A DNA stretch of 64,000 nt from Candidatus Zambryskiibacteriota bacterium. GTDB taxonomy: Bacteria > Patescibacteriota > Minisyncoccia > Phycocordibacterales > WO2-35-19. Positions 3,178-35,999 of this stretch are shown piece after piece. Within the stretch, counting starts at the first letter, position 1. The number at the start of each line of letters is the position of its first letter. A program made the position numbers and the translations under genes. Below the pieces are notes generated by a model that had not been told where the DNA came from, made no database searches, and saw nothing but the letters and a program-made list of their open reading frames with translations. The stretch is from the NCBI GenBank assembly GCA_003233455.1, contig QILQ01000012.1, positions 4,441 through 68,440 on the forward strand, written 5' to 3'.

Positions 3178-3190
3178 CATTATGCAAATC

Positions 3191-3214: not shown

Positions 3215-3266
3215 GATAAGTGAGAACAAAAGAATTTGTTCTTTGTAAGACGCTATGCGTCTTAAT

Positions 3267-12887: not shown

Positions 12888-13136
12888 ATGACTACCCAAA
12901 TAATGTTCAAAATTGAAAATAAGCTCAAGAAAGCAGCTCAAGAAAGAGCCAAAGAAGAGGGAATTACTCTAAGTGATTTTTATAAATCTGCCACCAAATC
13001 ATTTGTGGAAGGTAAAATAACAGTAGGAATAATTTTTGAAGAAGAGAGTTTAAACGATTACACAAAAGAAAGTTTATTGTCTTTAAAAAAAGGATTAGCT
13101 GATTGTAAAAAAGGCAAAGTTTTTAGAACAAGATGA
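12888..13136 (+). CDS. RelB/DinJ-family antitoxin
   Basis: IMFKIENKLKKAAQERAKEEGITLSDFYKSATKSFVEG; overlaps toxin gene by ATGA. Confidence 0.55.
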   Translation: MTTQIMFKIENKLKKAAQERAKEEGITLSDFYKSATKSFVEGKITVGIIFEEESLNDYTKESLLSLKKGLADCKKGKVFRTR

Positions 13137-13390
13137 AAATATTTTGGACGAATGAATTTAATAAAAATTTAAAACTTCTCCCAACTAAAACAAGAAGGCT
13201 CTACAAAAAACAGGAAAATATCTTTTTTGTAAACTGGAAAGATCCTCGCCTCCACACAAAAAAACTAAAAGGAGTTAATCAGATTTTTTCTTTTAGAATT
13301 ACAAGAAAATATAGAGTTTTATTTAAAATTACAGATAAATCCTCAATTTTGTTTGTTTCAATAGGTCACAGAAAAAATATTTATGACTAA
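13133..13390 (+). CDS. RelE/ParE(YafQ)-family toxin
   Basis: 85 aa, ...FSFRITRKYRVLFKITDKSSILFVSIGHRKNIY. Confidence 0.6.
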   Translation: MKIFWTNEFNKNLKLLPTKTRRLYKKQENIFFVNWKDPRLHTKKLKGVNQIFSFRITRKYRVLFKITDKSSILFVSIGHRKNIYD

Positions 13391-14324
13391 ATTTCAACCA
13401 AAAAAATCATTGGGGCAACATTTTTTGAGAGATTCAAAAATACTCAAGAGAATTGTTGATTTTGCCGAGATTAAAAAAACAGATATTATGGTAGAAGTGG
13501 GACCTGGAGAAGGAGGACTTACTAAATTACTTCTTGAACAAGCGAAAAAAGTGATAGCGGTTGAAAAAGATGAAGAGATGGTAATTTTTTTGAAAGGCAA
13601 ATTTAAAAAAGAAATCAAAGAAGGAAAATTAGAAATTGTTGAAGGAGATATTTTAGATTTTTATTCGCAAAATATTTTCTCGCCACTTGCGGACTCAAAC
13701 TATTTTGCCACCAACTATAAATTAGTTGGCAATATCCCATATTACATAACTGGAGCTTTGTTTAAAAAAGCTTTAGAAGCTTCAAATTTTCCAAAATCAA
13801 TAACTTTTGTAGTCCAAAAAGAGGTAGCACAAAGAATTATGGCTCAAAGATGCCTGCCTGCCGGTGGGCAGGGAAAAGAAAGTATTTTGAGTATTTCCAT
13901 AAAAGTTTATGGCAAGCCGAAATATGGGGGAGTTATAAAAGCGGGCAGTTTTTATCCAAAACCAAAAGTTGATTCGGCTATTTTATCAGTAAGAGGTATT
14001 TCAAAAGAAAAATTTCAAAGGACTGACCTTAAAAAAAATCCCAAAGGTCAGTCCTTGGGAAAAGAAAATTTTTCTTTTGGGGAAATACTTGAGCAGAATT
14101 TCTTTAAAATATTAAAAATAGGATTTTCTCATAAAAGAAAGTTGCTTATTAAAAATTTGGAGAACCTGTCAAGGGTCGCCTTTTTGGGGCAACTTTCAAA
14201 GGCGACCCTTGACACTTCAAATCTAAAAGAAATTTTTGAAAAATGTGGAATTTCAGATAAAGCCAGAGCAGAAGATTTAAAAGTTGAAGATTGGATTTGC
14301 TTGAGCAAAAAGTTTTCACCATAA
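13383..14324 (+). CDS. rsmA: 16S rRNA (adenine1518/1519-N6) dimethyltransferase RsmA/KsgA, with in-frame palindromic insertions
   Basis: LGQHFLRDSKILKRIV...VEVGPGEGGLT...FYPKPKVDSAIL...FSHKRKLLIKNL; longer than usual owing to inserted segments. Confidence 0.85.
   Translation: MTKFQPKKSLGQHFLRDSKILKRIVDFAEIKKTDIMVEVGPGEGGLTKLLLEQAKKVIAVEKDEEMVIFLKGKFKKEIKEGKLEIVEGDILDFYSQNIFSPLADSNYFATNYKLVGNIPYYITGALFKKALEASNFPKSITFVVQKEVAQRIMAQRCLPAGGQGKESILSISIKVYGKPKYGGVIKAGSFYPKPKVDSAILSVRGISKEKFQRTDLKKNPKGQSLGKENFSFGEILEQNFFKILKIGFSHKRKLLIKNLENLSRVAFLGQLSKATLDTSNLKEIFEKCGISDKARAEDLKVEDWICLSKKFSP
14018..14056. repeat. Perfect 13-bp inverted repeat (AAGGACTGACCTT/AAGGTCAGTCCTT) inside rsmA coding sequence
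   Basis: Direct reading; encodes RTDLKKNPKGQSLG within the ORF. Confidence 0.7.
14167..14214. repeat. Perfect 17-bp inverted repeat (TGTCAAGGGTCGCCTTT/AAAGGCGACCCTTGACA) inside rsmA coding sequence
   Basis: Direct reading; encodes SRVAFLGQLSKATLDTS inserted between conserved KRKLLIKNLENL and NLKEIFEKCGI. Confidence 0.75.
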
Positions 14325-14361: not shown

Positions 14362-15210
14362 ATGATTGCTTTACCAAGTAAAAAAGTTTTGAGTATTTTG
14401 ATTTTAACAACTGCTTTGGTAGTAGCTGTTATTATCGCTTTTGGCAGAGATAAAAACAATAAAACCATAAATTTTGCCAGTAATTTAGTGGCAGGAGATA
14501 AAGTCTCATTACCAAAAAATCCAAATTGGCAAAATGAATTAAATAATGTAACCACCGGTATAAATCAAACAGAAGAAAACGCTTCAACAACAAAAGAAAC
14601 TGCCACTGATATTATATCAAGAAGTTTGATATCAAATTATTTAGCTTTAAAACAAAGTGGTAATTTAAACCAACAATCAGCCAAAAAATTAGTATCTCAA
14701 ACTGTAAATTTAACTAACCAATTGGGAAATAAAGTTGTTTTAAATACCAAACTTAATATTGTGGCTAACAATGGTCGTCAATCAATTCTTGACTATGGTG
14801 AAAATTTAGGAAATATTCTAAAAAAGAATAGACCTAAAGAATTAAAAAATGAATTGAAGATTATCAGTCAAGCGGTAGAATTAAGAGACCCATCAAAAAT
14901 AAATGAGTTGGACAGTGTTATTGTTGTCTATCAAAAAATTGTTGATAAACTGATTAAAATGCCCGTGCCTCAAACTTTTGCTAAAGCTCACTTGGATTTA
15001 ACCAATGGATTAAAGGGGGTAATCATCTCTCTTACAGAAATGAAAACTATTTTTAATGACCCCATTAAAAGTTTGTCGTATATGCAACTATACAAAGAAA
15101 GTGTAAATAAATTTACTCAAGCGATAAAAGCCACTGATATATTTATAATTCAGAATAAGATTATTTATAAACAAGGTAGCGGTGGCTACTACTTATTATA
15201 CGGGATATAA
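14362..15210 (+). CDS. Hypothetical secreted/membrane-anchored protein
   Basis: N-terminal hydrophobic anchor, N/Q/K-rich. Confidence 0.35.
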   Translation: MIALPSKKVLSILILTTALVVAVIIAFGRDKNNKTINFASNLVAGDKVSLPKNPNWQNELNNVTTGINQTEENASTTKETATDIISRSLISNYLALKQSGNLNQQSAKKLVSQTVNLTNQLGNKVVLNTKLNIVANNGRQSILDYGENLGNILKKNRPKELKNELKIISQAVELRDPSKINELDSVIVVYQKIVDKLIKMPVPQTFAKAHLDLTNGLKGVIISLTEMKTIFNDPIKSLSYMQLYKESVNKFTQAIKATDIFIIQNKIIYKQGSGGYYLLYGI

Positions 15211-15251
15211 TAAGGATGAAAAGTCACAAAAATTAAAAGCAATAAAATAAT

Positions 15252-17630
15252 ATGACAAAACTCTCAAAAAAAATTATCGTTTTAGTTTTAGCGACTACCT
15301 TTATTTTTTCTCCTATTTTAGCAACTAAAGTTGAAGCTCAGTGGGTCGTTTGGGATCCGGGAAATTTCGTGCCAAATTCAATTTCCGCCGCAAATAGCAT
15401 AGCACAAACAACAAAAGATTATGGGCTTGATAGTGTAGCTTGGATAATAGTCAATCTTATAATAGAAAGAATGGCGGCCAGCACAGTTAATTGGATAAAT
15501 ACCGGTTTTAAAGGAAGTCCCGCTTATGTAACAGATCCGCAAGCCTATTTTCAAGATATTGGCGATAAGGTAGCTGGTCAATTTATATTTAAAAATCCAA
15601 ATTTGAATTCTCTTTGCAGACCTATAAATGCCAACATAAGATTGGCTCTCAATCAAAATTATATTCAAGACAGAATTTGGCAATGTACTTTAACTGACTC
15701 AGTGGGAAATATGCAAGATTTTTTGGGCGATTTTAATAAAGGAGGTTGGGATAAATTTTTTGAACTCTCGCAAAGACAACAAAACAATCCGATTGGTGCT
15801 TATTTGCAGGCCCAAAATGAGCTTGATCTTCAAATTGCCACCAGACAAGAAACAAAACAAAAAGAACTTAATTGGGGTCAAGGTTTTATGTCTTATAAAA
15901 AATGCGAAATTTACGGACCAGATATAGTAACCCCTGGTTTTCCGGGTGACCCAGCTAGACCAGAAATAAGACAACCTGTTTGTTTGAAAGAAACAACAAA
16001 AACACCTGGGTCAGTAATATCAAATCAATTAAATAAACAGTTAGGAGCCGGTCAAGATAAATTGGTGGCAGCAGATGAAATAAACGAGATAGTCAGTGCT
16101 CTTTTGAATCAACTTATAACTCAAGTGGTTGGTGGCGTGGGTAGGGGTTTGAGAGGATTGAGTAGTCCAAGTCAAACTAACAGTAGTCAAACGTTTACGA
16201 AGCAGTTGTCTAATACTAGTGCAAAATCAACAGTTGATTATTTTGGAAGTACTGTTGATACATCAATTTTAGACATTCCTCCTCCAGATTTAAACGCAAA
16301 CAAGCCCGAGAATTTTAATTCTCAACCTATAAATCTAAATAATTCAAACATTGATACTGTTGCAATAACAGGTGCTTTTAAAATAGGGAGCACATTAGCG
16401 ACTAACATTTCAGTACCAATAGGCACAAATGTAACTTATCAGTGGCAAATAGCAGATACGGAAAATGGAGTATATAAAAATATTTCGTTAGCTACAGGAA
16501 CCACATATACCCCAACAGCGACTGATGTTAATAAATTTATTAGAATCGCTATAAAAGATTCGGGTAGTCTATCTGGAACAATAACAAGTAAAGCCACAAT
16601 AATAACACCTAATGTAAATGCACCAACAGCATCAGATAATAATATTGGAGTATATTTTTGGGCAAGCCCTATAATAAATAGCGGTTCAGATATAATAAAA
16701 ACTGGAGTTAATCTTACTAAAAATCTTGGAGTGAAGAAAATAAGGATAACTCTTAGTTCCAAAACTGATCTTGATTATGGTATAAGCAATAATTGTATAA
16801 GCAATTTTTCTTTGGTTAATATTGCCAAGAGAGGGGATTTCACTTCAATATTTTCTGATCCAAAATTTAATACCATTATGATTACTGCCTATGATGGAGT
16901 GTCTTTCCCTGATTGTATTACCAAAAATTACCTCAATCCAAATTTTGTAACTAAAAATAAGCAACAAATTGAACAAGAATATAAAGATCTTGCAAATTAT
17001 TTGAAAAGTTTCCCTTCAAAAAATTTTATTATATCAAACTGGGAAGGGGATAATGATATATATTGTGGTCAAGCTTATGGAACATCAGCTACTGTTTGTC
17101 CAAATTATTTAAATGCTATGGATGGATTTAAAAAATGGGTAATAGCATACAGCGACGGAATTAGTTCTTCTGGGGCTAGTAATGTTTACAGTGCAGTAGA
17201 ATTTAATATTGCCAGATATTTAAAAAATAATGATTTACCGAGTGTGCTATATGATGTGATTCCAAATGTTAACACAAATTATTTTTCCTACTCTTCTTAT
17301 GAATCAATAAATCCAATCATTACTTTAAATGACAAGGGAAATCAATTAAAATCAGATTTAACTTTAATTAAAAATGTAATTTCTAGTGCAAGTAAAAACC
17401 CAAATAATCTAATTATTGGTGAATTTGGTTTTAGTTCTTCAAATAGAGATTTGGTCAAAGATAGTCTAAAAACTGCTGTTGATATATTTAAAAATAATAA
17501 TATTAATAACTATTTTGTATGGAATCTTTCAGATTCAGGCGGATCATTTGGTTTATATGATGCCAATTCACAAATGACCAGTGCTGGTAAATATGTGTGC
17601 AGTATCGCGGGTGGATTAAACTGTATTTAG
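15252..17630 (+). CDS. Large hypothetical secreted protein (792 aa)
   Basis: Signal peptide MTKLSKKIIVLVLATTFIFSPILATKVEA, no recognisable domain. Confidence 0.4.
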   Translation: MTKLSKKIIVLVLATTFIFSPILATKVEAQWVVWDPGNFVPNSISAANSIAQTTKDYGLDSVAWIIVNLIIERMAASTVNWINTGFKGSPAYVTDPQAYFQDIGDKVAGQFIFKNPNLNSLCRPINANIRLALNQNYIQDRIWQCTLTDSVGNMQDFLGDFNKGGWDKFFELSQRQQNNPIGAYLQAQNELDLQIATRQETKQKELNWGQGFMSYKKCEIYGPDIVTPGFPGDPARPEIRQPVCLKETTKTPGSVISNQLNKQLGAGQDKLVAADEINEIVSALLNQLITQVVGGVGRGLRGLSSPSQTNSSQTFTKQLSNTSAKSTVDYFGSTVDTSILDIPPPDLNANKPENFNSQPINLNNSNIDTVAITGAFKIGSTLATNISVPIGTNVTYQWQIADTENGVYKNISLATGTTYTPTATDVNKFIRIAIKDSGSLSGTITSKATIITPNVNAPTASDNNIGVYFWASPIINSGSDIIKTGVNLTKNLGVKKIRITLSSKTDLDYGISNNCISNFSLVNIAKRGDFTSIFSDPKFNTIMITAYDGVSFPDCITKNYLNPNFVTKNKQQIEQEYKDLANYLKSFPSKNFIISNWEGDNDIYCGQAYGTSATVCPNYLNAMDGFKKWVIAYSDGISSSGASNVYSAVEFNIARYLKNNDLPSVLYDVIPNVNTNYFSYSSYESINPIITLNDKGNQLKSDLTLIKNVISSASKNPNNLIIGEFGFSSSNRDLVKDSLKTAVDIFKNNNINNYFVWNLSDSGGSFGLYDANSQMTSAGKYVCSIAGGLNCI

Positions 17631-17661
17631 TGGTTTTATATTTTATTATAATGAAATAAAT

Positions 17662-20175
17662 TTGGTAAAAATAAAAATGACAAAGAAATTTTTAACATTC
17701 GGAATAATAATAATTATATTAGCTGGGATTTTTGTCCCGTCTGTTGTTTTAGCAATTACAGATGGACAATGTACTGCAGATCAAATAGCTGCTGGTGGCA
17801 TAACCAGAAAGCTTGGGGATATTGTTGATAGTAGAATTACACTTACAGAATACTGTCAAGAAGCAGGAGAAAAAGGAGACCAAGGGGTTGTAGGTGGAGC
17901 TATTAATGATGCTGGTGCCGCGATAAGTGCACCAGCTAAAATAGCGGCTAATTGGATGGGAGCAAAACTTTTTGAATGGATAGGTAAAATCTTAATGACT
18001 TTATCATCCCTTATTTTAATAATTTCCGGTTACATATTTGATAAAATTGTTAATTTCACCATTGTTAATATGTCAAAAAATATTGGCGACCCTAATGGAG
18101 TAGGTGGTAGTATCACTGGAGCTTGGAAAACGCTTAGAGATATCGCCAATATGGCTTTTATATTCGTGCTTCTCTTTGCTGCTTTTAAAGCAATGTTTAA
18201 CACCGATTTTAGTGGTTTTCGCAATACTGTAAAAAATATTATTATAGTGGCTTTACTTATAAACTTTAGTCTTTTCTTTTCAAAAGTGGTTATTGACGCT
18301 TCTAATATTGCTTCCGTCGGTTTTTACAATTCAATTGTGGGAGCCAATTCAAACAGTATTGAATTGGTTGCCGGCAATAAAAGCACCGCTCCCGGAGGCA
18401 CAAGTAATTTTAAAGGTATCTCTGGTGGTTATATGAGAATGTTGGGATTGCAAACATTTTACGGCGCCGATATTTTAACAGGACAAACTGATGCCATAAA
18501 AATATTTATCCTCGGTTTTATGAGTTCAATATTTATGCTGATTACCGCTGTTGTACTTTTAATAGCCGGCGTAATGTTTGCCACTCGTTTTATTATTTTA
18601 ATTTTTTTAATGATTCTCTCACCTCTGGCTTTTATCGCTTATATTATACCGGGAATGGAAGGTCACTTTAAAAAATGGAAAAGTGCATTGATAGACCAAT
18701 CTTTTTTTGCTCCATTATTTTTTGCTTTAACTTGGGTAGTGTTTAAAATTGGTTCTTCACTTGTTACAGTATTAAATGTGTCCACCCAAACAGGCAGTGG
18801 AGCACAATGGACTGATATGATGACAGATCCAAAGAGTGCTACCGCTCTCTTGCTTAATTATGTATTAATAATCGGCTTTTCTATTGCCGCTCTTGTTTTA
18901 TCCAAACAAATGGCGATTAAGACAGCTAGATTTGAAGCTATTAGTGGAGGAATTGGTACTGCAACCATTGGTGGTGTCGCCCGTGTAGGTAGGAATACTG
19001 TTGGAAGAGGGTCAAGAGCACTTCTTAATTCAGACAAATTAAGGAATGCCTCCTCTTCAGAAAAATGGTATTCGGGTGCAGCCAGAGCTGGTCTTTGGAC
19101 ATCTAAAAGAGGAGCTGAAAGCAGTTTTGATTTGAGAGCATCTAATAAATTAGGAAAAGTGCCCGGACTTGGTGGAGAATTGGGAATTCTTGGCAAAGCT
19201 GGAGGTAAAGGAGGGTTCAGTTCGGCAGTAGATAAAAAAGCAAAAGACAAAGCGGCATATTCTAAAGCTATTTATGGGCAGACGGATGAAGAAAAAGAAA
19301 AAGCTAATAAAGAAAAAAGAAAATATGAAGGATATATGGGTGATGACGGTAAATGGGTAAAAGGAGCTAAAGAAGAATACGAAAACACAAAGAAAAAAGA
19401 AGATGAAAGAATCAAAGAGGAAAGAAAAGCGGAAAAAGAAAAGATAGCAAAAACTAAGGAAGAAGCAACAAAAAATGTTAAAGAGAAGGAAGAAAAACTT
19501 CAGCAAGAAAAAGATGCTAGGATAGCTGGAGTGGGAAGTTTTATAAATGAGGAAAAAGCTAATAAAGAACTTGAAGAATCCAAAACAAAATTAGAAAATA
19601 TCACAAAAGCACATGAGTTAGCTATTGAAAGAGAAAAAGCGAAAATTGAAGACGCTGATTATTCGGAAGCTACCATAGCATTAAAAACAGAGGCCGATCT
19701 CAGGAAAGTTGGGTGGGATAAAATTAAAAATGCCGGTGCTGAAAGACAAAGAGCTTATGCTAAAAGACTTGATAAAGGTAAGTTAGGAAAAGTAGCGAGA
19801 GGGATTGGTTCAGGAATACTTAGTGGTAGTGCGGGTGCAGTAACGGGAGGAGCAATGGGATCATTAGCTGGACCAATAGGCACCATTGTTGGATCTAGTG
19901 TTGGGGGTGTTCTTGGTTTTTGGGGTGGAGTAAAAACTAGCCACCAAGGAAATAAAGCTGCCGCGAGAGCAATAATAAAGCAAGCCGAAGGGAAATCTAA
20001 AGCAGAACAATTAGCTGATGCGGCAAGAGATTATCAAAAAGAGGAAGATAAGAAAAAAGAAAAAAATGGTGCAACAGCTGAAAAAGCTACAGATACAACA
20101 AAAGAAAATAAAGAGAAGGAAGAAAAAAATGGTGCAACAGGTTTTACACCACCCCCATCGTCCGCTAACTCATAA
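17662..20175 (+). CDS. VirB6/TrbL-like polytopic membrane protein with long C-terminal K/E-rich coiled-coil and Gly-rich tail
   Basis: Signal/anchor then >=6 TM helices over aa 100-420 (TrbL/VirB6-like topology), followed by ~400 aa charged coiled-coil; sits upstream of PrgI-like and VirB4 genes. Confidence 0.45.
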   Translation: MVKIKMTKKFLTFGIIIIILAGIFVPSVVLAITDGQCTADQIAAGGITRKLGDIVDSRITLTEYCQEAGEKGDQGVVGGAINDAGAAISAPAKIAANWMGAKLFEWIGKILMTLSSLILIISGYIFDKIVNFTIVNMSKNIGDPNGVGGSITGAWKTLRDIANMAFIFVLLFAAFKAMFNTDFSGFRNTVKNIIIVALLINFSLFFSKVVIDASNIASVGFYNSIVGANSNSIELVAGNKSTAPGGTSNFKGISGGYMRMLGLQTFYGADILTGQTDAIKIFILGFMSSIFMLITAVVLLIAGVMFATRFIILIFLMILSPLAFIAYIIPGMEGHFKKWKSALIDQSFFAPLFFALTWVVFKIGSSLVTVLNVSTQTGSGAQWTDMMTDPKSATALLLNYVLIIGFSIAALVLSKQMAIKTARFEAISGGIGTATIGGVARVGRNTVGRGSRALLNSDKLRNASSSEKWYSGAARAGLWTSKRGAESSFDLRASNKLGKVPGLGGELGILGKAGGKGGFSSAVDKKAKDKAAYSKAIYGQTDEEKEKANKEKRKYEGYMGDDGKWVKGAKEEYENTKKKEDERIKEERKAEKEKIAKTKEEATKNVKEKEEKLQQEKDARIAGVGSFINEEKANKELEESKTKLENITKAHELAIEREKAKIEDADYSEATIALKTEADLRKVGWDKIKNAGAERQRAYAKRLDKGKLGKVARGIGSGILSGSAGAVTGGAMGSLAGPIGTIVGSSVGGVLGFWGGVKTSHQGNKAAARAIIKQAEGKSKAEQLADAARDYQKEEDKKKEKNGATAEKATDTTKENKEKEEKNGATGFTPPPSSANS

Positions 20176-20183
20176 TAAATATT

Positions 20184-20738
20184 ATGAACTATAAAGAAAC
20201 AATACTAAAAAGATTAAAAGAATTACCAGAGGCATTAAGGTCTTTCATATTAGACGAAAAATGGAGAGCGGATGCAGAAAGAATTGGCAAGCAATTTAAC
20301 CTTAATGAAGAAAAATACGCTTCTTTTGAAAATGAAATTTTTGTGGTATTACTCGCCCTTGAACCAATCGGTGACTTCGAAGAAAACATAAAAATTACAC
20401 TAAAACTGGACTCAAATATGGTAGGTTGGATTGCTGAAGATGTTAAAAAAAGTATTTTTGATAAAGTCTCTAGCGAACTTAATGCAATATGGAAAGAAAT
20501 TGGAAAAGCAGAAGAAAAACAAAATGAAGAAGTACTAAAAGAAAATCAAACTCCAAAAAATATAGAAAATTCATTTGAGCAAAAAATATCAAATCAAGCT
20601 AAGGCAATGCGCCCCGCCCAAAAAGCTCCAATTAATTTACCAACAGAGCAGGAGAGTGAAGTAAAAACAGAAGAAAAACCAAAAGCCACACAGAGTTACG
20701 AAATAGGAAAAGACCCTTATAAAGAACCATTAAATTAA
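20184..20738 (+). CDS. Hypothetical acidic soluble protein in T4SS-like cluster
   Basis: 184 aa. Confidence 0.3.
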   Translation: MNYKETILKRLKELPEALRSFILDEKWRADAERIGKQFNLNEEKYASFENEIFVVLLALEPIGDFEENIKITLKLDSNMVGWIAEDVKKSIFDKVSSELNAIWKEIGKAEEKQNEEVLKENQTPKNIENSFEQKISNQAKAMRPAQKAPINLPTEQESEVKTEEKPKATQSYEIGKDPYKEPLN

Positions 20739-20743
20739 AAACC

Positions 20744-21163
20744 ATGCGTTTTCAAATACCACAATTTATAGATGTAGAAGACAAAATTTTCGGACCTTTT
20801 ACTTTGAAGCAATTTATTTATTTAGCCGGAGGAGCTTCTGTGGCGGTAGCTTCTGTCACATTTTTTGGTCTTTTTTTTGGAATTCTTATTTCTTTGCCTA
20901 TTGTTGTGTTAGCTCTGGCTTTGGCTTTTTATAAAATAAACAACCGACCTTTTATTTATACTATGGAATCAGCCTTTAAATACATAACAAAAGATAAACT
21001 TTATATTTGGAGAAAAGAGGAAAGAAAAGAAGAGAGGGAAAAAAATAATGAAAAAAAATATAGCTCTTTAGTAGTGCCGAATCTGTCCAAAAGTAAGCTA
21101 AAAGATATGAATTGGGAATTGGATGTTAAGAAAAAAGAAGATAAAAAATTAGTTAATAGTTAA
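20744..21163 (+). CDS. PrgI/VirB3-like small membrane protein
   Basis: 139 aa; F.GPFTLKQFIYLAGGA...two TM helices then K/E-rich tail, immediately upstream of VirB4. Confidence 0.45.
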   Translation: MRFQIPQFIDVEDKIFGPFTLKQFIYLAGGASVAVASVTFFGLFFGILISLPIVVLALALAFYKINNRPFIYTMESAFKYITKDKLYIWRKEERKEEREKNNEKKYSSLVVPNLSKSKLKDMNWELDVKKKEDKKLVNS

Positions 21164-21184
21164 ATATTAGGTTAAAATATATAT

Positions 21185-21808
21185 ATGAGTAAAAATGCGA
21201 CTCAAGAGTTTGTGCCGATAGATGATATTAGAGATGGTATCGTTATATTAAAAGACGGCGGTATGAGAGGTATCTTAATGGCCTCTTCTATAAACTTTTC
21301 TCTAAAATCAGATGATGAAAGACGAGCTATACTGCTTCAATTTCAAGATTTTTTAAATTCTTTAGACTTTTCCATTCAGATATTAGCTCAGTCCAGAAAA
21401 CTTGACATCAGACCATATATCGCTCTTTTAGAAGGAAGATATAAAGAACAAACGAATGATTTGATGAAAATTCAAATTGAGCAATATATGGAATTTATAA
21501 AAAGTTTTACTGAATCAACCAATATTATGACCAAAAACTTTTTTATTGTAGTCCCTTACGACGCGGCCATTATCTCCACTAAACGCAACATTTTTTCCAG
21601 TATTAGCGGTAAAAAAGAAAGCCAAGAAACAAAAGAAGAAAATTTTGAGGAGAAGAAAAATCAGCTTGAACAGAGAATGGGAGTAGTGGAACAAGGTTTG
21701 GTTCGTAGCGGAGTAAGAGTGGCTAAACTTGGCACCGACGAAGTGATAGAATTATTTTATAAAATATTTAATCCGGGAGAATCAGAGAAACCTATAAAGA
21801 TAAAATAA
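21185..21808 (+). CDS. VirB4/TrsE/PrgJ-family conjugative ATPase, N-terminal domain (split gene part 1)
   Basis: FVPIDDIRDGIVILKDGGMRGILMASSINFSLKSDDER...typical N-terminus of Gram-positive-type VirB4. Confidence 0.55.
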   Translation: MSKNATQEFVPIDDIRDGIVILKDGGMRGILMASSINFSLKSDDERRAILLQFQDFLNSLDFSIQILAQSRKLDIRPYIALLEGRYKEQTNDLMKIQIEQYMEFIKSFTESTNIMTKNFFIVVPYDAAIISTKRNIFSSISGKKESQETKEENFEEKKNQLEQRMGVVEQGLVRSGVRVAKLGTDEVIELFYKIFNPGESEKPIKIK

Positions 21809-21812
21809 ATAT

Positions 21813-23627
21813 ATGTTTGATTTTTTAACAAAAAAGAAAAAAAAAGATAATTTGACCGCAGTTTCCATCTTGCCAAAATCAATAACCGAAAGTTCCGAGT
21901 TGGAGCTCAGAGACATCTTGGCACCAAGTGCTTTAAAAGTAAATTCTAAGGAACTTAATTTGGGAGAAAAACTGGTCAGGAGTTTTTTTGTTATATCATA
22001 TCCAAGATTTGTAACCGAAGATTGGTTTGCTCCAATTATAAATATGGATAAAATGTTTGATGTCTCTATTTTTATTCACCCATTGGAAACAGCTAAGATA
22101 CTTAGAAGTTTTCAAAAAAAAGTGGCCGAAGTTCAGAGCCAAATTAGAATAAGAGAAGAAAAAGGTTTAGTCCGAGATCCTGTGCTTGATACCGCTTATC
22201 AAGATTTAGAAAATTTGCGCGACCAGCTTCAGCAGGCTCAAGAAAAAATGTTTGAAGTTGGACTTTATATTTCGGTTTACGCCAGTAGTAGTGATGAATT
22301 GGACAAAGTTGAATCGGAAATAAAATCAATCCTTGAATCCAAACTGGTTTATGTTAAACCGGCTTTATTTCAACAAGAACAAGGGTTTAGAAGTATTTTA
22401 CCAACCGCCGAAGATAAACTTATGGTGCATTCCAAAATAAATTCTTCGCCTCTTTCCAGTTTATTTCCTTTTATTTCTTTTGACCTCACTTCCGATAAAG
22501 GCATTCTTTACGGTATCAACCGCCATAATTCCTCTTTAGTTTTATTTGATAGATTTTCTTTGGAAAATTACAACTCAGTCACTTTCGCTAAAGCCGGTGC
22601 TGGAAAATCCTATAATATAAAACTTGAAATATTACGCACTCTTATGTTTGACGCCGAAGTAATCGTCATAGACCCGGAAAATGAATATGAATATATGGCC
22701 GAAGCGGTAGGGGGTAGATATTTTGACATTTCTTTAAATTCCGACCATCACATCAATCCTTTTGAACTTCCCATTCCGGCGGAAGACGAATCTACCGCCA
22801 GTGTTTTACGAAGCCAAATAATAAATTTGGTGGGACTTTTCAGAATAATGATGGGAGGACTTTCAGCCGAAGAAGATGCTATTATTGACAAAGCTATTAC
22901 CGAAACCTACGCTTTAAAAGATATTACTATTGATTCTAATTTTAAAAATGTGGAGCCACCACTTCTTTCCGACTTTGAATTAGTGCTCAGTGGTATGGAA
23001 GGAGGAGAGTCTTTGGCTCAAAGGTTGTCAAAATATACTAAAGGCACTTGGTCAAATTTCATCAACAGACCTTCAAATATAGATATCAACAAAAAGTTTG
23101 TGGTTTTTTCCATTAGAGATATGGAAGACGAATTAAAACCAGTGGCTATGTATATAGTTACCCATTATATTTGGAATGCTATTAGAAGAGAATTAAAAAA
23201 ACGACTTTTAGTGATTGATGAAGCTTGGTGGATGATGAAATCAGAGGATACTGCCTCTTTCTTATTATCTTTAGCCAAAAGAGGACGAAAGTATTATCTG
23301 GGATTGGCGACTATCACCCAAGATGTGAGCGACTTTTTGAAATCTCCATACGGCGCGCCCATTATCAGTAACTCTTCCATTCAAATTTTACTCAAACAAT
23401 CACCGACAGTGATAGATAAATTGCAACAAGTTTTTAATTTAACTGATGAAGAAAAATATCTGCTCTTGGAATCGGGAGTGGGTGAGGGTATCTTTTTTGC
23501 CGGACTTAAACATGTGGCTATAAAAATAATCGCTTCTTATACCGAAGACCAAATCATCACTTCCGACCCATCTCAAATTTTGGCTATTAAAAAACAAAAG
23601 AAAGAAGATGATGAAAAGAAAAAATAA
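21813..23627 (+). CDS. VirB4/TrsE/PrgJ-family conjugative ATPase, ATPase domain (split gene part 2)
   Basis: Walker A FAKAGAGKS, VIDPENEY, Walker B LLVIDEAWWMM, RGRKYYLGLATITQD. Confidence 0.7.
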   Translation: MFDFLTKKKKKDNLTAVSILPKSITESSELELRDILAPSALKVNSKELNLGEKLVRSFFVISYPRFVTEDWFAPIINMDKMFDVSIFIHPLETAKILRSFQKKVAEVQSQIRIREEKGLVRDPVLDTAYQDLENLRDQLQQAQEKMFEVGLYISVYASSSDELDKVESEIKSILESKLVYVKPALFQQEQGFRSILPTAEDKLMVHSKINSSPLSSLFPFISFDLTSDKGILYGINRHNSSLVLFDRFSLENYNSVTFAKAGAGKSYNIKLEILRTLMFDAEVIVIDPENEYEYMAEAVGGRYFDISLNSDHHINPFELPIPAEDESTASVLRSQIINLVGLFRIMMGGLSAEEDAIIDKAITETYALKDITIDSNFKNVEPPLLSDFELVLSGMEGGESLAQRLSKYTKGTWSNFINRPSNIDINKKFVVFSIRDMEDELKPVAMYIVTHYIWNAIRRELKKRLLVIDEAWWMMKSEDTASFLLSLAKRGRKYYLGLATITQDVSDFLKSPYGAPIISNSSIQILLKQSPTVIDKLQQVFNLTDEEKYLLLESGVGEGIFFAGLKHVAIKIIASYTEDQIITSDPSQILAIKKQKKEDDEKKK

Positions 23628-23672
23628 AACCCACCCTATTTAGATTTATTACAAATTTAAAGTTTCTCGCTT

Positions 23673-23720
23673 CCCCTCTCTTTGATAAGGAGAGGGCACA
23701 CGAAGTGAGGGGTGAGGTGA
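23673..23720. repeat. GC-rich palindromic repeat element, half copy (hairpin CCCCTCTCTTTGATAAGGAGAGGG + GAAGTGAGGGGTGAGGTG)
   Basis: Shares motifs with elements at 42354-42467, 46365-46415 and 47863-47936. Confidence 0.6.
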
Positions 23721-23760
23721 TTAAAAAAGAGATAGAGAAAGTTATGATACAATACTTCTT

Positions 23761-24198
23761 ATGAAAGAAAAACCTCTACAAAATTACCCTCCTTTAAAAA
23801 GACCAGTTAGAACCATACCGCAAAAAAGTGAAGAAAAAAGAGAAAGGATAAGCGTTTGGGTGGGTGCTTCTATGATAATAGTCGCTTTATGTGTTGATGT
23901 GGCTCAAGCTCTTCTTATAATTCTCGGTATAGGATTAGCATTAGGATCAATAATAACTATTGTAGCATACTTTGTTTTTTGGATTTGGTTTATGATTTTA
24001 GGTGTATCATTTATTACTAATCCTAAAAAACTGTTGACGGTGGGTATTGGTGGAGCGGTAGAAGCTTTGCCTCTTTTTAATTTCTTACCAGCCTTTACCG
24101 CCATGATAGCAACAGTAGTCTTTATGACCAAAGCTGAAGACAAAGGTGGTATGATTGGAAAAGCGGCTAGTTTGGCTCAAGGAAAAATAAAATCTTAA
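23761..24198 (+). CDS. Hypothetical membrane protein (T4SS-like cluster)
   Basis: 145 aa, 3-4 TM helices. Confidence 0.35.
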   Translation: MKEKPLQNYPPLKRPVRTIPQKSEEKRERISVWVGASMIIVALCVDVAQALLIILGIGLALGSIITIVAYFVFWIWFMILGVSFITNPKKLLTVGIGGAVEALPLFNFLPAFTAMIATVVFMTKAEDKGGMIGKAASLAQGKIKS

Positions 24199-24238
24199 AA
24201 TATTATATATAATGGAATCTAAATGATATAATAATAAA

Positions 24239-25243
24239 ATGTTAAATAAGTTTATAAAAACTTTAATATTGGTAGGTTTTGGAGTGATAATTCTACCAAC
24301 AATCTCTTTTGGTCAAATAAAAGTAAACACTTCCTACGCTCTTTCAAACGAGCTTGGAGTTGAAATCATTCCCAACTATCCAAAACCGAATAAGATGGTT
24401 TTTATCAATTTAACCCTTTACACTAACGATTTAAATTCTGCTCTCATAACTTGGTATAAGGACGGAAAAAAAGTCTTAAGTGGCAAGGGAAAAACCAAAT
24501 ATTCATTTAGAACAGCGAATGTTGGGAAAGAAACAAAAATTGAAACAGTAATTAAACTTTTAAACGGTTCTGTTTTCTCAAAAGTTTTCACTCTGAATCC
24601 AGCCAATGTTGACTTGACTTGGGAAGCTAACTCATATACGCCACCATTTTATAAAGGTAAAGCCTTGCACCCCAAACAAGGTAGTTTAAAAGTTGTAGCC
24701 ACTCCGGAATTTATTAAAGGAGGTAAAATAATTCTTCCTCAAAATTTAATTTATAAATGGTCAAATGGTCTTAAAGTATATCAAGAGCAATCCGGTTATG
24801 GTAAAAATGTTATTATTTTAAATGGTTCAATTTTAGGAAGAAATGAAAACATAAAAGTTTTAGTGACAGATCCGGTCAATAATTTAGTGGCAGAAAGTTT
24901 TGTTAATATAAAACCAATTAACCCGGAAATAGTTTTTTACAAAGACAGCCCATATTATGGACCTATTTTCAATTTAGCCATCGCTAATAATTTTAATTTA
25001 AAAGCAGAAGAAACACAGATTCTGGCAGCTCCGTATTATTTCACCAAAGAAAATATTAATGGTTTAAAATATGAATGGAGATTAAATAATCAAGTTATTT
25101 CAAATCTTTCAAGCTCCAGAACCGCCATCTTTAGAAAACCTAAAAAACAAGCGGGAAAATCCCTTATTTCTTTGCAAGTTCAAAATCTAATTAGAATCTT
25201 GCAACAAGCAGATAGAAATTTAACAATAAGTTTTAGTGATTAA
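24239..25243 (+). CDS. Hypothetical secreted protein
   Basis: Signal peptide, 334 aa. Confidence 0.35.
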   Translation: MLNKFIKTLILVGFGVIILPTISFGQIKVNTSYALSNELGVEIIPNYPKPNKMVFINLTLYTNDLNSALITWYKDGKKVLSGKGKTKYSFRTANVGKETKIETVIKLLNGSVFSKVFTLNPANVDLTWEANSYTPPFYKGKALHPKQGSLKVVATPEFIKGGKIILPQNLIYKWSNGLKVYQEQSGYGKNVIILNGSILGRNENIKVLVTDPVNNLVAESFVNIKPINPEIVFYKDSPYYGPIFNLAIANNFNLKAEETQILAAPYYFTKENINGLKYEWRLNNQVISNLSSSRTAIFRKPKKQAGKSLISLQVQNLIRILQQADRNLTISFSD

Positions 25244-26165
25244 GAATCATAAAATGAAAAAGATAATTTTAAAAATAGGAATATTGATAATACTTGCAAT
25301 GTTGATGTTGCCAATAACACAAGTTATTGCCGCTGGTGCTACTGATAATTGGGATAATAACACAACAAGTAAAAACGAATATGCGGTTCTGGCACCACTT
25401 CCCGGTGTAGCTAATAAAGTTGGTGATACCACTACTTTAAAAAAATATATCCACGCTATTTTTAATCTGGCCATAGGTCTTTCAGCGGTAGCGGCAGTCT
25501 TAATGATTGTTTTGGGCGGTTTTCAGTATATGTCCACCGATGCTATTATGAAAAAAGAGGAAGGTAAGAAGAGGATTAAAAATGCCATATATGGCTTGAT
25601 TCTTGTTATTTCTGCTTGGCTTATTCTTTACACTATTAACCCAAATCTTTTAAAACTTAACTTAAATATAGAATCCATAACAACAGCCACTCCGGCGGGA
25701 GGAACTTTGACTGGCGTCAGAACAGCAACCGGAGTGGATCTTTTATCCGGAAACAGTTTACAAGCTGATCAAGCTATTAGAGATAATTTAGGTAAGGTAA
25801 AAGTAAATAATAAACCTTGCACAACTCAAAGAACATCTAAATGCACCAATCTTAACGGATTACCCCAATCAATGATTTCTTCTTTGAAGAATTTACAAAA
25901 AAATTGCACCCAAGGTAGTAATAATTCCTGTATTGTTCAAATTAGCGGTGGCACAGAAACTTCTTTACATATAGCAGGAAGTGAACATAAACCGGGTAAA
26001 AGTGTGGTGGATTTATCATCAAAAAACACATTAAATACTTATCTTGGATACCCAACTCCTCAAAGCGGAGACACTGTAACCAAAGATGGTTTAAAATTTA
26101 AATATGAGGTTACTGGAGAAAATGGAGTTTCCACGGGACCGCATTGGCATGTAATACCCCCTTAA
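25236..26165 (+). CDS. VirB2/TrbC-pilin-like hairpin protein fused to C-terminal domain with M23-like motif (candidate T4SS-associated cell-wall hydrolase)
   Basis: Signal peptide, two hydrophobic helices separated by a short polar loop (IHAIFNLAIGLSAVAAVLMIVLGGFQY / NAIYGLILVISAWLILYTI), C-terminal ...GVSTGPHWHV resembling the STGPHxHF motif of M23 peptidases. Confidence 0.35.
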   Translation: MIKNHKMKKIILKIGILIILAMLMLPITQVIAAGATDNWDNNTTSKNEYAVLAPLPGVANKVGDTTTLKKYIHAIFNLAIGLSAVAAVLMIVLGGFQYMSTDAIMKKEEGKKRIKNAIYGLILVISAWLILYTINPNLLKLNLNIESITTATPAGGTLTGVRTATGVDLLSGNSLQADQAIRDNLGKVKVNNKPCTTQRTSKCTNLNGLPQSMISSLKNLQKNCTQGSNNSCIVQISGGTETSLHIAGSEHKPGKSVVDLSSKNTLNTYLGYPTPQSGDTVTKDGLKFKYEVTGENGVSTGPHWHVIPP

Positions 26166-26177
26166 AGTATAAATAAA

Positions 26178-27428
26178 ATGAGTAAAAAAATATTATTGAT
26201 AATAGGAATATTGGCGGTAGTGGCGGTAGCTTTGTTTTTGATTTTAACTTCAAAACCGCAAACAACTGGAGAAAATCGGGTGGGATTTTCCGTTAGAGAA
26301 TTCTTGCCTTTTGGCAAAAATGGCAATACAGAAACAAGCAGTTCAACAACAAAAATAAAAGAAAATCAATCAATTGACACATCATTAAACACAACATCAA
26401 ACCAACTAATACCAAGACTCCGAAAAATATCCAGCGGACCGATAGCGGGAGCGGTTGTTTTTAATATTGGCACCACCAGCATCGTAAGATTTGTGGAAAA
26501 AGGCACCGGTAATATTTATGAAGCGAGATCAGATTCTTTAATAATTAAAAGACTTACCAACACCACTATTCCTAAAATAATAAGAGCTTTTTGGTTGCCG
26601 AACGGTTCCGCTTTCTTAGCTCAAACTTTAATACCGAATAGTGAGATTATAGAAACAAACTTTATAAAATTAAATAAAAATCCTATTAATGTTGGCAGTG
26701 AGAATTTAACTCCATTTAGCACCACTATCGGCAAACTGCCTACTGGTATAAAAGAAATTGCCATTAAGCCTGATAGTTCCAAAATTTTTTATTACACTGT
26801 TTCCGGTTCGTCAAATTGGTTTATTTCAAAACCTGATGGTACTGATAGTTATTTGGTAATGTCTCAACCGCTAACCGAATGGTTGCCAAAATGGATTACT
26901 TCCAACCAAATAATTATGCAGAATAAAGCGAGTTCAGAAAGTGTGAGTTTTAGTTATGTTTTTAATATCAAAAATAAAACTTTCAAAAAGATAGGTTTGG
27001 GTATTAGAGGACTTTCCACAAAGCCAAATTATAATGGAACTTTAACTTTAGCTTCAAGTGGTGGCACTTTTCCTCAATTATTTATTATTGATAATAAAAA
27101 TATTACCATAAGTAAAGTAAACGCAAATACTCTAGCCGACAAATGTGTTTGGTCTAAAGATAAAAATCTTTCTGTTTATTGTGCCATCCCAATTCAAATA
27201 CCAAACGGCAATTATCCGGATATTTGGTATAAAGGGCTTGTTTCTACTGAAGATTTTATAGAAAAAATAGACTTAAATAATGATATTTTTTATAATGTTT
27301 CCAATCTTTCTTCTGAATCCGGTCAAAAAATAGATGTGATGAATTTAAGTATTTCTCCAGACGGAGCTTATCTTATTTTCCGCAACAAAACTGATGATTA
27401 TTTATGGATGTTGAAAATTGAGAAATAA
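26178..27428 (+). CDS. Hypothetical secreted protein
   Basis: N-terminal TM/signal, 416 aa. Confidence 0.35.
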   Translation: MSKKILLIIGILAVVAVALFLILTSKPQTTGENRVGFSVREFLPFGKNGNTETSSSTTKIKENQSIDTSLNTTSNQLIPRLRKISSGPIAGAVVFNIGTTSIVRFVEKGTGNIYEARSDSLIIKRLTNTTIPKIIRAFWLPNGSAFLAQTLIPNSEIIETNFIKLNKNPINVGSENLTPFSTTIGKLPTGIKEIAIKPDSSKIFYYTVSGSSNWFISKPDGTDSYLVMSQPLTEWLPKWITSNQIIMQNKASSESVSFSYVFNIKNKTFKKIGLGIRGLSTKPNYNGTLTLASSGGTFPQLFIIDNKNITISKVNANTLADKCVWSKDKNLSVYCAIPIQIPNGNYPDIWYKGLVSTEDFIEKIDLNNDIFYNVSNLSSESGQKIDVMNLSISPDGAYLIFRNKTDDYLWMLKIEK

Positions 27429-27474
27429 TAATGTATAATTAACCAGTATTCGTTTATTAATATAATTTAATCGT

Positions 27475-29649
27475 ATGAAAAAAATAATTATTCTTTTTAT
27501 TGCATTTTTAATAATATCTCCCAATTTCGCTTCTGCATCTACAATTAATAACTTACAAGAACAAATAAGATCTCTGCTCGCGCAAATTGCCTCACTTCAG
27601 CAACAACTATCACAACAAGTAGGTCAATCTGAACAAAAAATTTATACCAATACAAATAGAAATACATGCCTTTCACTTACCAACAATTTATCATATAGAT
27701 CAAGAGACTCTTGGACAAACGGGGAAGTATCAACATTGCAAGATTTTCTTCAGGTAAAAGGATATCTAAGCTCTGAACCAACGGGGTATTTTGGCCTTCT
27801 TACTCTTGAGGCGGTAAAGAAATTTCAAATCGCAAACGGTATTAGCCCAGTTCAAGGGTTTGTAGGAGTTCTCACTAGAGCAAAACTTAATTCTATGAAT
27901 AGTTGTGCTAAAACAACCACCAAAACAAGTCCAATTTCAACTTCAAACCAAATACACACACTTTCTATTCTTTATCCAACCCATAATGCTTCGTTTATCG
28001 GTACTGGTCCCAGTACAGTAACTTGGACTGATGGCGATGCAAACGGAAAATATGCTATTAAAGTCACTGTTATAAATTCTGTTGGGTATTCTTCAGGTAC
28101 AAAAGTTTTCTCCACTACCCTTACTAGAGAACAATCGGGGTGTTCGGCTAGCGATAAATGTTCCTACTCATTATCAGTAAAAATAGCTGGAACTTATCGT
28201 TTAAGTGTCAAAAATCAAACCAACGGAGTAAGCGATACAGTAAACTTTACAATTCAGGCAAATACAATCTCTCAAGTTCCTTCTATAACTATTCTTTCAC
28301 CTTCACCAATGGGAGTAAAAGGGGGGTTAGATATTGATCCAGGTAGTAATTATACTATTCGATGGACATCAACCGAGTTAAATAAAGTAAAACCTTACTT
28401 ATGTACTTATTCAGGAAGTTGTAAAATTTTAGGGAATGTACCCAATGTTGGTGTTAATACTTATTTAGGTTCTTTTAATTGGTATGTTGATCCAAATCAT
28501 CCATATTTTCCTGGTTATAATTTACGAATAAAACTTGAAGATGCTTCAAATAGTAAGGTGTTTGCTTATAGTGGTTATTTTGATGTTATTCCTATAATTG
28601 ATATAGCTCCTCAAATTCTTTATCCCAAGGGTGGTGAGATACTACAAGGCAACATAACAAATTTTATTTCTTGGAATCCAATATCATATTCCGAAACATT
28701 TGATGTATCAATTATAGGAATTGATTCTGGAAATAGTTATTTAATTATTCAGAATGTACCAGCTAAAGCAACTGATAAGCAATCAATCCAGTGGACACCT
28801 AAAACGGGGATGTACGAAAAAGATACTCGGTTCATGGCACAGGTGTGCAGAACAGGAACAACTCTTTGTTCAAAAAGTAATGGTTTTACTATTAACTTTC
28901 CAAACACTTCACAAACTCAACCATCTAATGGTAATTTCTCCATTTCTAGAAGTTCATTTGATTTCAAATATACTCAAGGTGAAAAAACTCCTCCACTTCA
29001 AGACCTAACTTTTACCAATACCTCTAACACGAAGATTACCTATACTTTAAAAGTAGACAACAAACCTAACTGGTTAAATACTAGCTATAATACAGACTCT
29101 GCAACGGTTTGGCCCGGGACAGTCACTGGCTTGCATGCTCTTGTTGATCCTGTAGGTTTAGCTCCAGGAAATTACAAAACAACCCTCTCTATTAATGGAA
29201 ATTTTACCAATTCACCTATTTCTATTCCAATTACCTTATCTGTAGTTAGTAAACCTACCACATCTAATGTAACCCCCCCAACCAACCTTACCGGCTCTTG
29301 CCCAGCACCTTATACTAAAGCAAATGTTAGTTGGGTCGCTAGTGGATACAGTCCATACTATGTCCGCATGAATCCTGGTGCTTATAATTACACATGGCCT
29401 TTGTCTTCAGGTGGTATAGTAAATCAAGTGACTAATACTAATTGGAGTTTTCCTACTACTCCTGGGAAACATTATACTTGGTGGTTAACTGTCGTAGATC
29501 CTAAAACTGGCACCATGACCGATAGGGTTGTTTATGATTTGTCTTGTGGAACCCCCCCTACAGCTACCACTCTAAACTCCAATCAAATGGCGAATGTTTT
29601 GATGTCTGTTTCGGCAATTTTAAAAAACATACTAAAATCGTTGAGATAG
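27475..29649 (+). CDS. Secreted protein with peptidoglycan-binding (PG_binding_1-like) domain and Ig-like repeats
   Basis: Signal peptide, coiled coil, then TLQDFLQVKGYLSSEPTGYFGLLTLEAVKKFQIANGISPVQGFVGVLTRAKL. Confidence 0.45.
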   Translation: MKKIIILFIAFLIISPNFASASTINNLQEQIRSLLAQIASLQQQLSQQVGQSEQKIYTNTNRNTCLSLTNNLSYRSRDSWTNGEVSTLQDFLQVKGYLSSEPTGYFGLLTLEAVKKFQIANGISPVQGFVGVLTRAKLNSMNSCAKTTTKTSPISTSNQIHTLSILYPTHNASFIGTGPSTVTWTDGDANGKYAIKVTVINSVGYSSGTKVFSTTLTREQSGCSASDKCSYSLSVKIAGTYRLSVKNQTNGVSDTVNFTIQANTISQVPSITILSPSPMGVKGGLDIDPGSNYTIRWTSTELNKVKPYLCTYSGSCKILGNVPNVGVNTYLGSFNWYVDPNHPYFPGYNLRIKLEDASNSKVFAYSGYFDVIPIIDIAPQILYPKGGEILQGNITNFISWNPISYSETFDVSIIGIDSGNSYLIIQNVPAKATDKQSIQWTPKTGMYEKDTRFMAQVCRTGTTLCSKSNGFTINFPNTSQTQPSNGNFSISRSSFDFKYTQGEKTPPLQDLTFTNTSNTKITYTLKVDNKPNWLNTSYNTDSATVWPGTVTGLHALVDPVGLAPGNYKTTLSINGNFTNSPISIPITLSVVSKPTTSNVTPPTNLTGSCPAPYTKANVSWVASGYSPYYVRMNPGAYNYTWPLSSGGIVNQVTNTNWSFPTTPGKHYTWWLTVVDPKTGTMTDRVVYDLSCGTPPTATTLNSNQMANVLMSVSAILKNILKSLR

Positions 29650-32721: not shown

Positions 32722-32722
32722 T

Positions 32723-33052
32723 TTATTTTATTAATTTTGATTTTTTGAGTATAGATTCTAAGTTTTTAATAATTTCCTCATTATTTTCTGGTATTTTTCT
32801 AAAAGAAAAAAAATTAACAGTATTTGATTGTATTTTAGGAATATATTTTTTTAACAACCGATAACCGACGCGTCTCATTTTATTCCGCGTTACCGCGTTT
32901 TTAGCCACTTTTTTAGAAATGGAAAAACAAAATCTGGAAGATTTACTGTTTTTAAAAATAAACTTCAACACAAAAAGGTCATTTTTAAAAATTTTAGTTC
33001 CATTTAATAATGGGAACATTTTTCTAGGAATTCTTCTGTTTTTGGGAAACAT
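32723..33052 (-). CDS. rnpA: Ribonuclease P protein component
   Basis: FSISKKVAKNAVTRNKMRRVGYRLLKKY; rpmH-rnpA-yidC order. Confidence 0.75.
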   Translation of the reverse strand: MFPKNRRIPRKMFPLLNGTKIFKNDLFVLKFIFKNSKSSRFCFSISKKVAKNAVTRNKMRRVGYRLLKKYIPKIQSNTVNFFSFRKIPENNEEIIKNLESILKKSKLIK

Positions 33053-35916: not shown

Positions 35917-35999
35917 TCTCACTTTAAAATACCTCACCTTAGTCCCTCTCCTATAAATACAGGAAAAGGGAGAAAGAAAGGAAAAATAATTTTAAAAAA

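Follow-up and report, generated by a model that had tools for sequence, protein, structure and literature searches.

A 64,000-nucleotide stretch of contig QILQ01000012.1, from the assembly GCA_003233455.1 of a Candidatus Zambryskiibacteriota bacterium (hereafter the window), codes for a type IV secretion system (T4SS) in a block of co-directional genes lying between ksgA and yidC-rnpA/dnaA. We consider it very likely that this locus is the Paceibacteria form of the chromosomal, non-conjugative T4SS found near the replication origin of Candidate Phyla Radiation (CPR) bacteria, or Patescibacteria, derived from the Gram-positive MPF_FATA conjugation machinery and repurposed for an epibiotic lifestyle. 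Its parts are an energising module (TrsD and VirB4), a membrane platform made of a PrgI/VirB3 protein and an extended VirB6 (the latter less well supported), a single VirB2-like pilin, and four to five conserved, lineage-specific envelope proteins. A non-conjugative CPR T4SS was also what the initial annotation, a first reading of the letters and open reading frames (ORFs), had proposed, and the component matches, the conservation of the locus, the lack of a relaxase or VirD4 in the window and the published view (PMC10633639; PMC12102498; PMC12857230) all support it. The locus is real, but the system is already described in papers of 2023 and 2025; what may be new, and is secondary, is the fusion of a pilin to a peptidase-like domain, the conserved accessory set of Paceibacteria, and the degree of constraint on VirB4.

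Conservation and gene content of the block

Twelve ORFs occupy positions 14362-29649, all on the forward strand and, judging from their coordinates, 4 to 133 nucleotides (nt) apart or slightly overlapping; the initial annotation had described them as a co-directional cluster, and its coordinates and lengths proved correct. The functional block is placed at 14362-27428 and comprises 11 conserved genes. Its order, ksgA-(p282-p792-VirB6-p184-PrgI-TrsD-VirB4-p145-p334-pilin-p416)-dnaA-dnaN, where p282 and the like are named for protein length in amino acids (aa), is colinear in 44 of the 45 Paceibacteria loci with full flanks. These loci come from a scan with one genome per species, in which more than 583 genomes had a close VirB4 relative. 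The best 80 of them (78 to 93% identity), all metagenome-assembled genomes of the Paceibacteria/Parcubacteria type with Zambryskibacteria nearest, were chosen as best VirB4 matches for the locus comparisons, and 45 of the 80 have full flanks.

Across the 45 loci, median identity to the window proteins was 80% for VirB4, 66% for TrsD, 60% for DnaA, 51% for PrgI, 47% for DnaN and 41% for KsgA. VirB4 (21813-23627) was more conserved than DnaA (33291-34634) in every one of them, although its identity is somewhat inflated with respect to an unbiased sample, since the loci were picked on VirB4 similarity. The colinear block and the position of VirB4 above DnaA therefore point to a core machine passed on by vertical descent and kept under strong constraint, and not to a mobile element, and a gene order repeated in dozens of genomes makes the cluster far beyond chance. 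Conservation is strong in the cytoplasmic and membrane core, whereas the extracellular parts (the C-terminus of the pilin, that of p792, and the tail of VirB6) are variable.

These data bear on the idea that the genes belong to a working element of the integrative and conjugative type, with its relaxase, oriT and coupling protein outside the 64-kb window, which we regard as very improbable. The components do derive from Gram-positive conjugation systems, and VirD4-like genes are present in most patescibacterial genomes, mostly far from virB4 (PMC12102498). Moreover, the search in which no VirD4/type IV coupling protein (T4CP), relaxase or integrase family was found among ORFs of at least 100 aa, and which bears out the initial annotation regarding VirD4 and relaxase, covered the 64-kb window only. 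However, the same housekeeping context (ksgA to dnaA-dnaN) is kept in 44 of 45 genomes, protein identities follow the pattern of vertical descent, neither integrase nor relaxase is found in the window, and a survey of 3,035 genomes counted just 109 relaxases, 15 of them near virB4 (PMC12102498). In the account that PMC12102498 gives of PMC10633639, moreover, Southlakia can do without its t4cp gene but not without the T4SS genes.

VirB4, TrsD and the membrane components

The ATPase body of VirB4 (21813-23627, 604 aa) is of the MPF_FATA, or Gram-positive, type. It matches the CD1110 family profile NF045971 over positions 181 to 733 of 752 (E 2e-109, 367 bits, NCBI curated cutoff 325) as well as PF19044 (E 7.5e-26), and its Walker A (GAGKS) and Walker B (LLVIDEAW) motifs are intact in the translation. 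The initial annotation had named a grouping with FtsK/TraG, along with membrane proteins unlike VirB6 and VirB3, as what would overturn its reading; with a score above the curated cutoff, the protein ranks as a VirB4 of the CD1110 family, and neither FtsK nor a coupling protein describes it, so the reading stands. The nearest plasmid-encoded VirB4s, at 29 to 36% identity, are those of Firmicutes and Actinobacteria. The ORF immediately before it (21185-21808, 207 aa) is TrsD-like, matching the TrsD/TraD family NF041427 over positions 14 to 200 of 201 (E 1.8e-8) and also positions 2 to 164 of the CD1110 VirB4 profile. The shorter ORF thus corresponds to the N-terminal domain of VirB4, as a gene of its own, and the longer one to the remainder, so that the two tile a complete VirB4.

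The two ORFs lie in different frames, 4 nt apart, which is what a pseudogene in a decaying, non-functional remnant of a T4SS might look like. We find this explanation practically untenable. All of the 77 related loci keep TrsD and VirB4 as distinct ORFs, with all three relative frames represented and gaps of up to ~480 nt; both halves are conserved above DnaA, the Walker motifs are preserved, and TrsD plus TrsE is a known functional arrangement of the pGO1 subclass (NF041427; PMC12102498). A frameshift or pseudogene origin was ruled out, as there is no slippery sequence at the junction and the split is kept in all of these loci. On sequence grounds, what the initial annotation called a split VirB4 is an old, genuine TrsD and VirB4 gene pair: the two ORFs and their VirB4 identity stand, but the gene is not broken.

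The PrgI/VirB3-like membrane protein (20744-21163, 139 aa) has one long hydrophobic stretch and matches PF12666 above the curated cutoff (E 1.1e-10, 42 bits, cutoff 27), in agreement with the identity first given to it. The case of p837 (17662-20175, 837 aa), described initially as a TrbL/VirB6-like protein with a K/E-rich tail, is less direct. It is polytopic from aa 1 to ~475, with about seven hydrophobic segments, and continues in a poorly conserved tail of ~360 aa rich in K (17%), A, E (13%) and G. Alone it has no Pfam match. When a profile built from 28 orthologues is compared with all PDB sequences, it scores best against the VirB6 of plasmid R388, TrwI (E 0.014; profile positions 185 to 404, TrwI 99 to 320), and within the family 2 of the 28 members match Pfam TrbL (E 1.6e-4) and 1 matches TrbL_4. 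The polytopic region and the tail are therefore as described, and the likeness to VirB6 is moderately supported. The third membrane component, p145 (23761-24198, 145 aa), has three to four hydrophobic segments by hydropathy, in keeping with the four transmembrane (TM) segments originally proposed, and no family match in Pfam or NCBIfam profile searches; its position is conserved: in 61 of 74 loci the corresponding gap holds an ORF with 60 aa or more and two or more hydrophobic segments.

The pilin, the envelope proteins and the neighbouring genes

The only pilin-like ORF in the window is p309 (25236-26165, 309 aa), a VirB2-like T4SS pilin matching PF18895 (E 6e-14). A signal peptide and helical hairpin (aa ~45-140) are followed by a linker of ~20 aa and by a C-terminal domain of ~150 aa with a LAS-type zinc-peptidase signature. 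In the AF2 model (pLDDT 82) there is a signal helix, a hairpin at aa 68-134, a disordered linker, and an alpha/beta domain at aa 160-309 with pLDDT above 90, made of three helices and five strands. A signal peptide, two hydrophobic helices and a K-rich loop together suggest that this C-domain lies outside the membrane.

Residues H245, H251, D259, H303 and H305 of the C-domain are invariant in 25 sequences. The motif spacing is H-x7-D (H-x6-D in relatives), with 44 to 46 residues on to HxH, and the motif ITGGTE..H....SH..G..VD aligns with the zinc site of Hedgehog N-domains. The best match among PDB sequences, a weak one, is the zinc motif of Indian hedgehog (E 1.3); VanX aligns weakly over both motifs (P 0.06), and in a per-member Pfam scan of the family 3 of 25 sequences match HH_signal (E 0.04) and 1 of 25 matches Peptidase_M15_4 (E 3e-4). 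The initial annotation had seen an M23-like motif at the C-terminus of this pilin. The pilin assignment and the short motif are both real, but the M23 family is not recovered: none of the 25 members matches PF01551 even at E<=10, and STGPHWH (STGPHxH) is the only part that aligns with the M23 protein of the window itself (hhalign P 6.7e-4, probability 27%). In M23 the zinc is bound by HxxxD ... HxH within a predominantly beta fold, in the M15/Hedgehog N-domain group by H-x6-D ... H(x)H within an alpha/beta sandwich. Because of the motif spacing and the helix-containing fold, an M15/Hedgehog-type LAS peptidase describes the domain better than M23, and from sequence and model it may be an M15/Hedgehog-type zinc peptidase-like domain. 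The M23 protein just mentioned is a secreted LysM plus Peptidase_M23 protein (E 1.5e-31) encoded on the opposite strand at 5555-6508, ~8 kb upstream of the T4SS cluster.

The C-domain family is large: a threshold of E<=1e-3 gives 2,393 cluster representatives, and E<=1e-10 still leaves 1,260. Among the 150 matches listed, the domain is always C-terminal in a protein of ~270 to 310 aa, and all 40 matches from the indexed library are pilin-sized, most of them annotated as PF18895. Against libraries of 5.8 billion and 1.84 billion proteins, the matches listed for the C-domain profile are pilin fusions only, with no bridge to a named peptidase family. Within the locus comparison, the pilin core is found in 65 of 65 pilins and the p309-type C-domain in 16, the rest having other C-terminal extensions. 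No description of a pilin-peptidase fusion was found in the literature searched, the coverage of which is incomplete; M23 and LysM domains are known from some patescibacterial VirB1-like proteins (PMC12102498).

The rest of the block codes for accessory proteins, among which those described initially as secreted or anchored have N-terminal signals or anchors by hydropathy. The first gene, p282 (14362-15210, 282 aa), encodes a bitopic membrane protein with a TM segment at aa 9-27 and ~250 aa outside; it has a homologue at the same position in 33 of 45 full loci and no sequence match in Pfam, NCBIfam or the PDB. Next to it, the secreted p792 (15252-17630, 792 aa) has a conserved N-domain specific to the T4SS block (aa ~30-300), an immunoglobulin (Ig)-like domain at aa ~359-433 with a ZirU-like match (E 4e-10), and a lineage-specific C-terminal part of ~340 aa. 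Conservation is confined to aa 1-300, and most homologues are 360 to 470 aa long. The start of the protein resembles DUF4141/TrbJ: it matches PF13605 over the first ~50 residues only (E 2e-7, 30.6 to 33.6 bits, cutoff 30) and TrbJ PRK13874 at the N-terminus only (E 4e-6). This is a hint, and no more, of a VirB5-like role. PDB sequences, solved VirB5-type proteins included, gave no match, and the AF2 model of the N-domain is poor (pLDDT 58). A GH5-like glycosidase at the C-terminus, suggested by the motifs NWEGDN and GEFGF, was dropped for want of Pfam or PDB sequence support.

The small acidic protein of the initial annotation is p184 (20184-20738, 184 aa), cytoplasmic, with a pI of 5.0, no TM segment and no family or PDB match. 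Its middle part is variable, whereas the C-terminal DPYRE (D177-P178-Y179-R180-E181) is invariant or nearly so in 27 sequences and could be a docking peptide for another part of the T4SS. Both p334 (24239-25243, 334 aa), secreted or anchored, and p416 (26178-27428, 416 aa), an N-terminally anchored exoprotein and the last gene of the block, are present in 45 of 45 full loci, p416 always at the same position. The best PDB sequence match of the p334 profile is Hoc of phage T4, a tandem-Ig protein (E 0.003), so p334 probably consists of tandem Ig-like domains; p416 has no PDB sequence match. We also considered p282, p334 and p416 as VirB8-like proteins, and profile searches against PDB sequences returned nothing of the kind. 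The gene that follows, p724 (27475-29649, 724 aa), encodes a secreted protein with PG_binding_1 and Ig-like (Kre9/BACON) domains in Pfam. The PG_binding_1 domain noted initially is confirmed (E 2e-9), but the protein is not a conserved member of the cluster: a homologue exists in only 1 of the 45 full loci, the following bPH protein is likewise not conserved, and the conserved T4SS set ends before p724, which is lineage-specific like the genes downstream of it.

Directly upstream of the block is ksgA (13383-14324), preceded by uvrD and a ParE-type toxin-antitoxin pair; downstream are yidC-rnpA (31996-33052, reverse strand), dnaA and dnaN (from 34813). The UvrD/PcrA-type helicase gene (9700-12849, forward strand) is split by an intein at aa ~278-644 (nt ~10531-11632), recognised by an Intein_splicing match (E 7e-9) and a Hom_end Hint match, with helicase domains on either side. 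Between uvrD and ksgA (12888-13390) are a ParE-like toxin (13133-13390, forward strand; PF05016, E 2e-6) and its small upstream partner ORF; among the related loci, only L007 and L013 have homologues of this pair in the corresponding position. The surroundings of dnaN (34000-36500) are very AT-rich, with 22% G+C at 34-36 kb. A scan of the window for DnaA boxes gave more matches than shuffled sequences but no clear cluster, and oriC was not located; a promoter and terminator scan of the T4SS cluster was uninformative in this AT-rich genome.

Farther away, mobile or defence-type genes surround tRNA-Gly and tRNA-Arg at 229-4137, all on the reverse strand: KilA-N (229-1047), an HNH endonuclease (1059-1751), a helix-turn-helix regulator (2433-2891) and a HepT-like RNase toxin (3778-4137). 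A Bro-N protein is encoded at 60097-60933, also on the reverse strand. A PilB-type ATPase of the type IV pilus (T4P)/type II secretion kind (44636-46348, reverse strand) is followed by a high-G+C stretch (41% versus ~32%) with a 313-aa ORF (46489-47430, forward strand) that is A/K-rich and has a signal peptide and no family match; no Rfam family was above threshold in this stretch.

Relation to known systems and possible role

The gene content of the block is that of the T4SS of the Patescibacteria clade: an MPF_FATA VirB4 with a separate TrsD, PrgI/VirB3, VirB6 and a PF18895 pilin, with no relaxase or T4CP in the cluster, a chromosomal position near dnaA, dnaN and ksgA, and closest relatives that are all Paceibacteria. 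A survey of 3,035 genomes placed patescibacterial VirB4 in a monophyletic clade nested in MPF_FATA, with TrsD as its most abundant partner, PrgI, VirB6 and PF18895 pilins present, and, for Paceibacteria, virB4 in the neighbourhood of dnaA, dnaN and ksgA (Quiñonero-Coronel et al. 2025, Microbial Genomics, PMC12102498). Southlakia epibionticum cannot grow epibiotically without its T4SS (SEML1_0006-0019) and the pilins of that system, which is similar to the conjugative systems of Gram-positive bacteria and has no recognisable coupling protein or relaxase (Wang et al. 2023, Cell, PMC10633639). Unlike Saccharimonadia and Microgenomatia, which have arrays of 2 to 11 divergent pilins (PMC12102498), the window has one pilin gene, with a zinc-peptidase-like C-domain. 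The proteins p282, p184, p145, p334, p416 and the N-domain of p792 are, as far as we could find, not named in PMC10633639 and PMC12102498, and our literature search gave no description of the conserved accessory exoproteins.

The order of polytopic protein, PrgI, (TrsD) VirB4 and wall hydrolase is shared with Gram-positive MPF_FATA systems (Trs of pGO1/pSK41, the CD1110 family of Clostridium plasmids and integrative and conjugative elements, and Prg of pCF10); TrsD is a gene of its own, as in pGO1, and VirB4 reaches the CD1110 curated cutoff. In contrast to Gram-positive conjugative T4SS, with which VirB4 shares 29 to 36% identity, the window has no MobC, relaxase, VirD4 or TopoIII, and its cluster is chromosomally fixed instead of borne on a mobile element. 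It also has a VirB2-like pilin, which Gram-positive systems lack (PMC12857230), and its hydrolase-like module is fused to that pilin, whereas theirs is a VirB1 of the SLT/CHAP type. The neighbourhood on a Clostridium perfringens plasmid reads MobC-relaxase-DUF3801-VirD4-two hypotheticals-PrgI-VirB4 (fused)-SLT hydrolase-...-TopoIII; by comparison, the window keeps the PrgI-VirB4 core order without any DNA-processing gene and adds a pilin.

Helicobacter ComB is likewise a non-conjugative T4SS without a coupling protein or relaxase encoded in its cluster. The same is true of Bordetella Ptl and Brucella VirB (PMC12102498). However, these three are diderm MPF_T systems with outer-membrane cores of VirB7, VirB9 and VirB10, and profile searches found no such families in the window. 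This matters for the proposal that the locus is a competence T4SS for DNA uptake, like ComB or archaeal Ced, an explanation that we judge unlikely. It would account for the lack of a relaxase and of a nearby T4CP, as in ComB and Ced; nucleic-acid import would be useful to CPR bacteria, which lack nucleotide synthesis, and uptake of host RNA is reported, along with tubular structures, possibly T4SS pili, in a cultivated member of Microgenomatia (bioRxiv 10.64898/2026.06.21.733656). There is also a match to CedB (E 1e-9), but a weak one, its 37.5 bits being far under the cutoff of 700, and the ComB-type outer-membrane parts are those missing above. In Southlakia, moreover, competence needs T4P/ComEC, and comEC mutants no longer transform yet remain viable, whereas loss of the T4SS is not tolerated (PMC10633639, as summarised in PMC12857230). 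The initial annotation had offered DNA uptake or host attachment as possible functions; the comEC result argues against uptake being the essential one.

Our preferred interpretation remains a non-conjugative machine serving the epibiotic lifestyle. VirB4, with TrsD and docked on VirB3/VirB6, would drive the pilin to assemble into a pilus-like tube, and the extracytoplasmic zinc-peptidase-like domain could help to breach the peptidoglycan of the cell itself, of the host, or of both; p792 and p334, through their variable outer parts, may also help with cell walls or host surfaces. The tube would be a contact-dependent conduit between the epibiont and the host cell, with host-derived macromolecules moving inward or effector proteins outward as possible cargo, and not plasmid DNA. 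A 2025 FEMS review also treats the T4SS as a possible pilus-forming conduit (PMC12857230). A bolder version, which we put forward tentatively and think possible but doubtful, is that in Paceibacteria the subunit of the filament is itself an enzyme, wall-cutting modules coating the pilus or stalk as a drill through the host envelope, with the p792 family as a VirB5-like tip with swappable outer domains. If true, it would explain how a Gram-positive-type T4SS without VirB1 crosses two cell walls.

Several points weigh against the epibiotic T4SS interpretation. No VirB8-like and no clear, classical VirB1-like protein was found in the cluster, and the VirB6 assignment rests on an E of 0.014 and three weak Pfam matches in 28 members. 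Three structure searches with the p309 model confirmed no peptidase fold, because the hairpin dominated the matches, and a pilin with a 17-kDa domain on each subunit may not polymerise and could instead be processed or be a membrane-anchored enzyme. To these are added the selection of loci on VirB4 similarity and the scope of the relaxase and VirD4 search, as such genes may lie elsewhere in the genome. Finally, essentiality in Paceibacteria is extrapolated from Saccharimonadia.

The T4SS is one of the few machines common to almost all CPR bacteria, and the one lineage tested cannot grow epibiotically without it. Of the candidate means by which these reduced cells exploit their hosts it is the foremost, a case already in print. 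To it, the present locus adds a clean reference architecture of 11 conserved genes for Paceibacteria, evidence of tighter constraint on VirB4 than on DnaA within the lineage, and a testable detail, a pilin that bears a probable, predicted wall peptidase.

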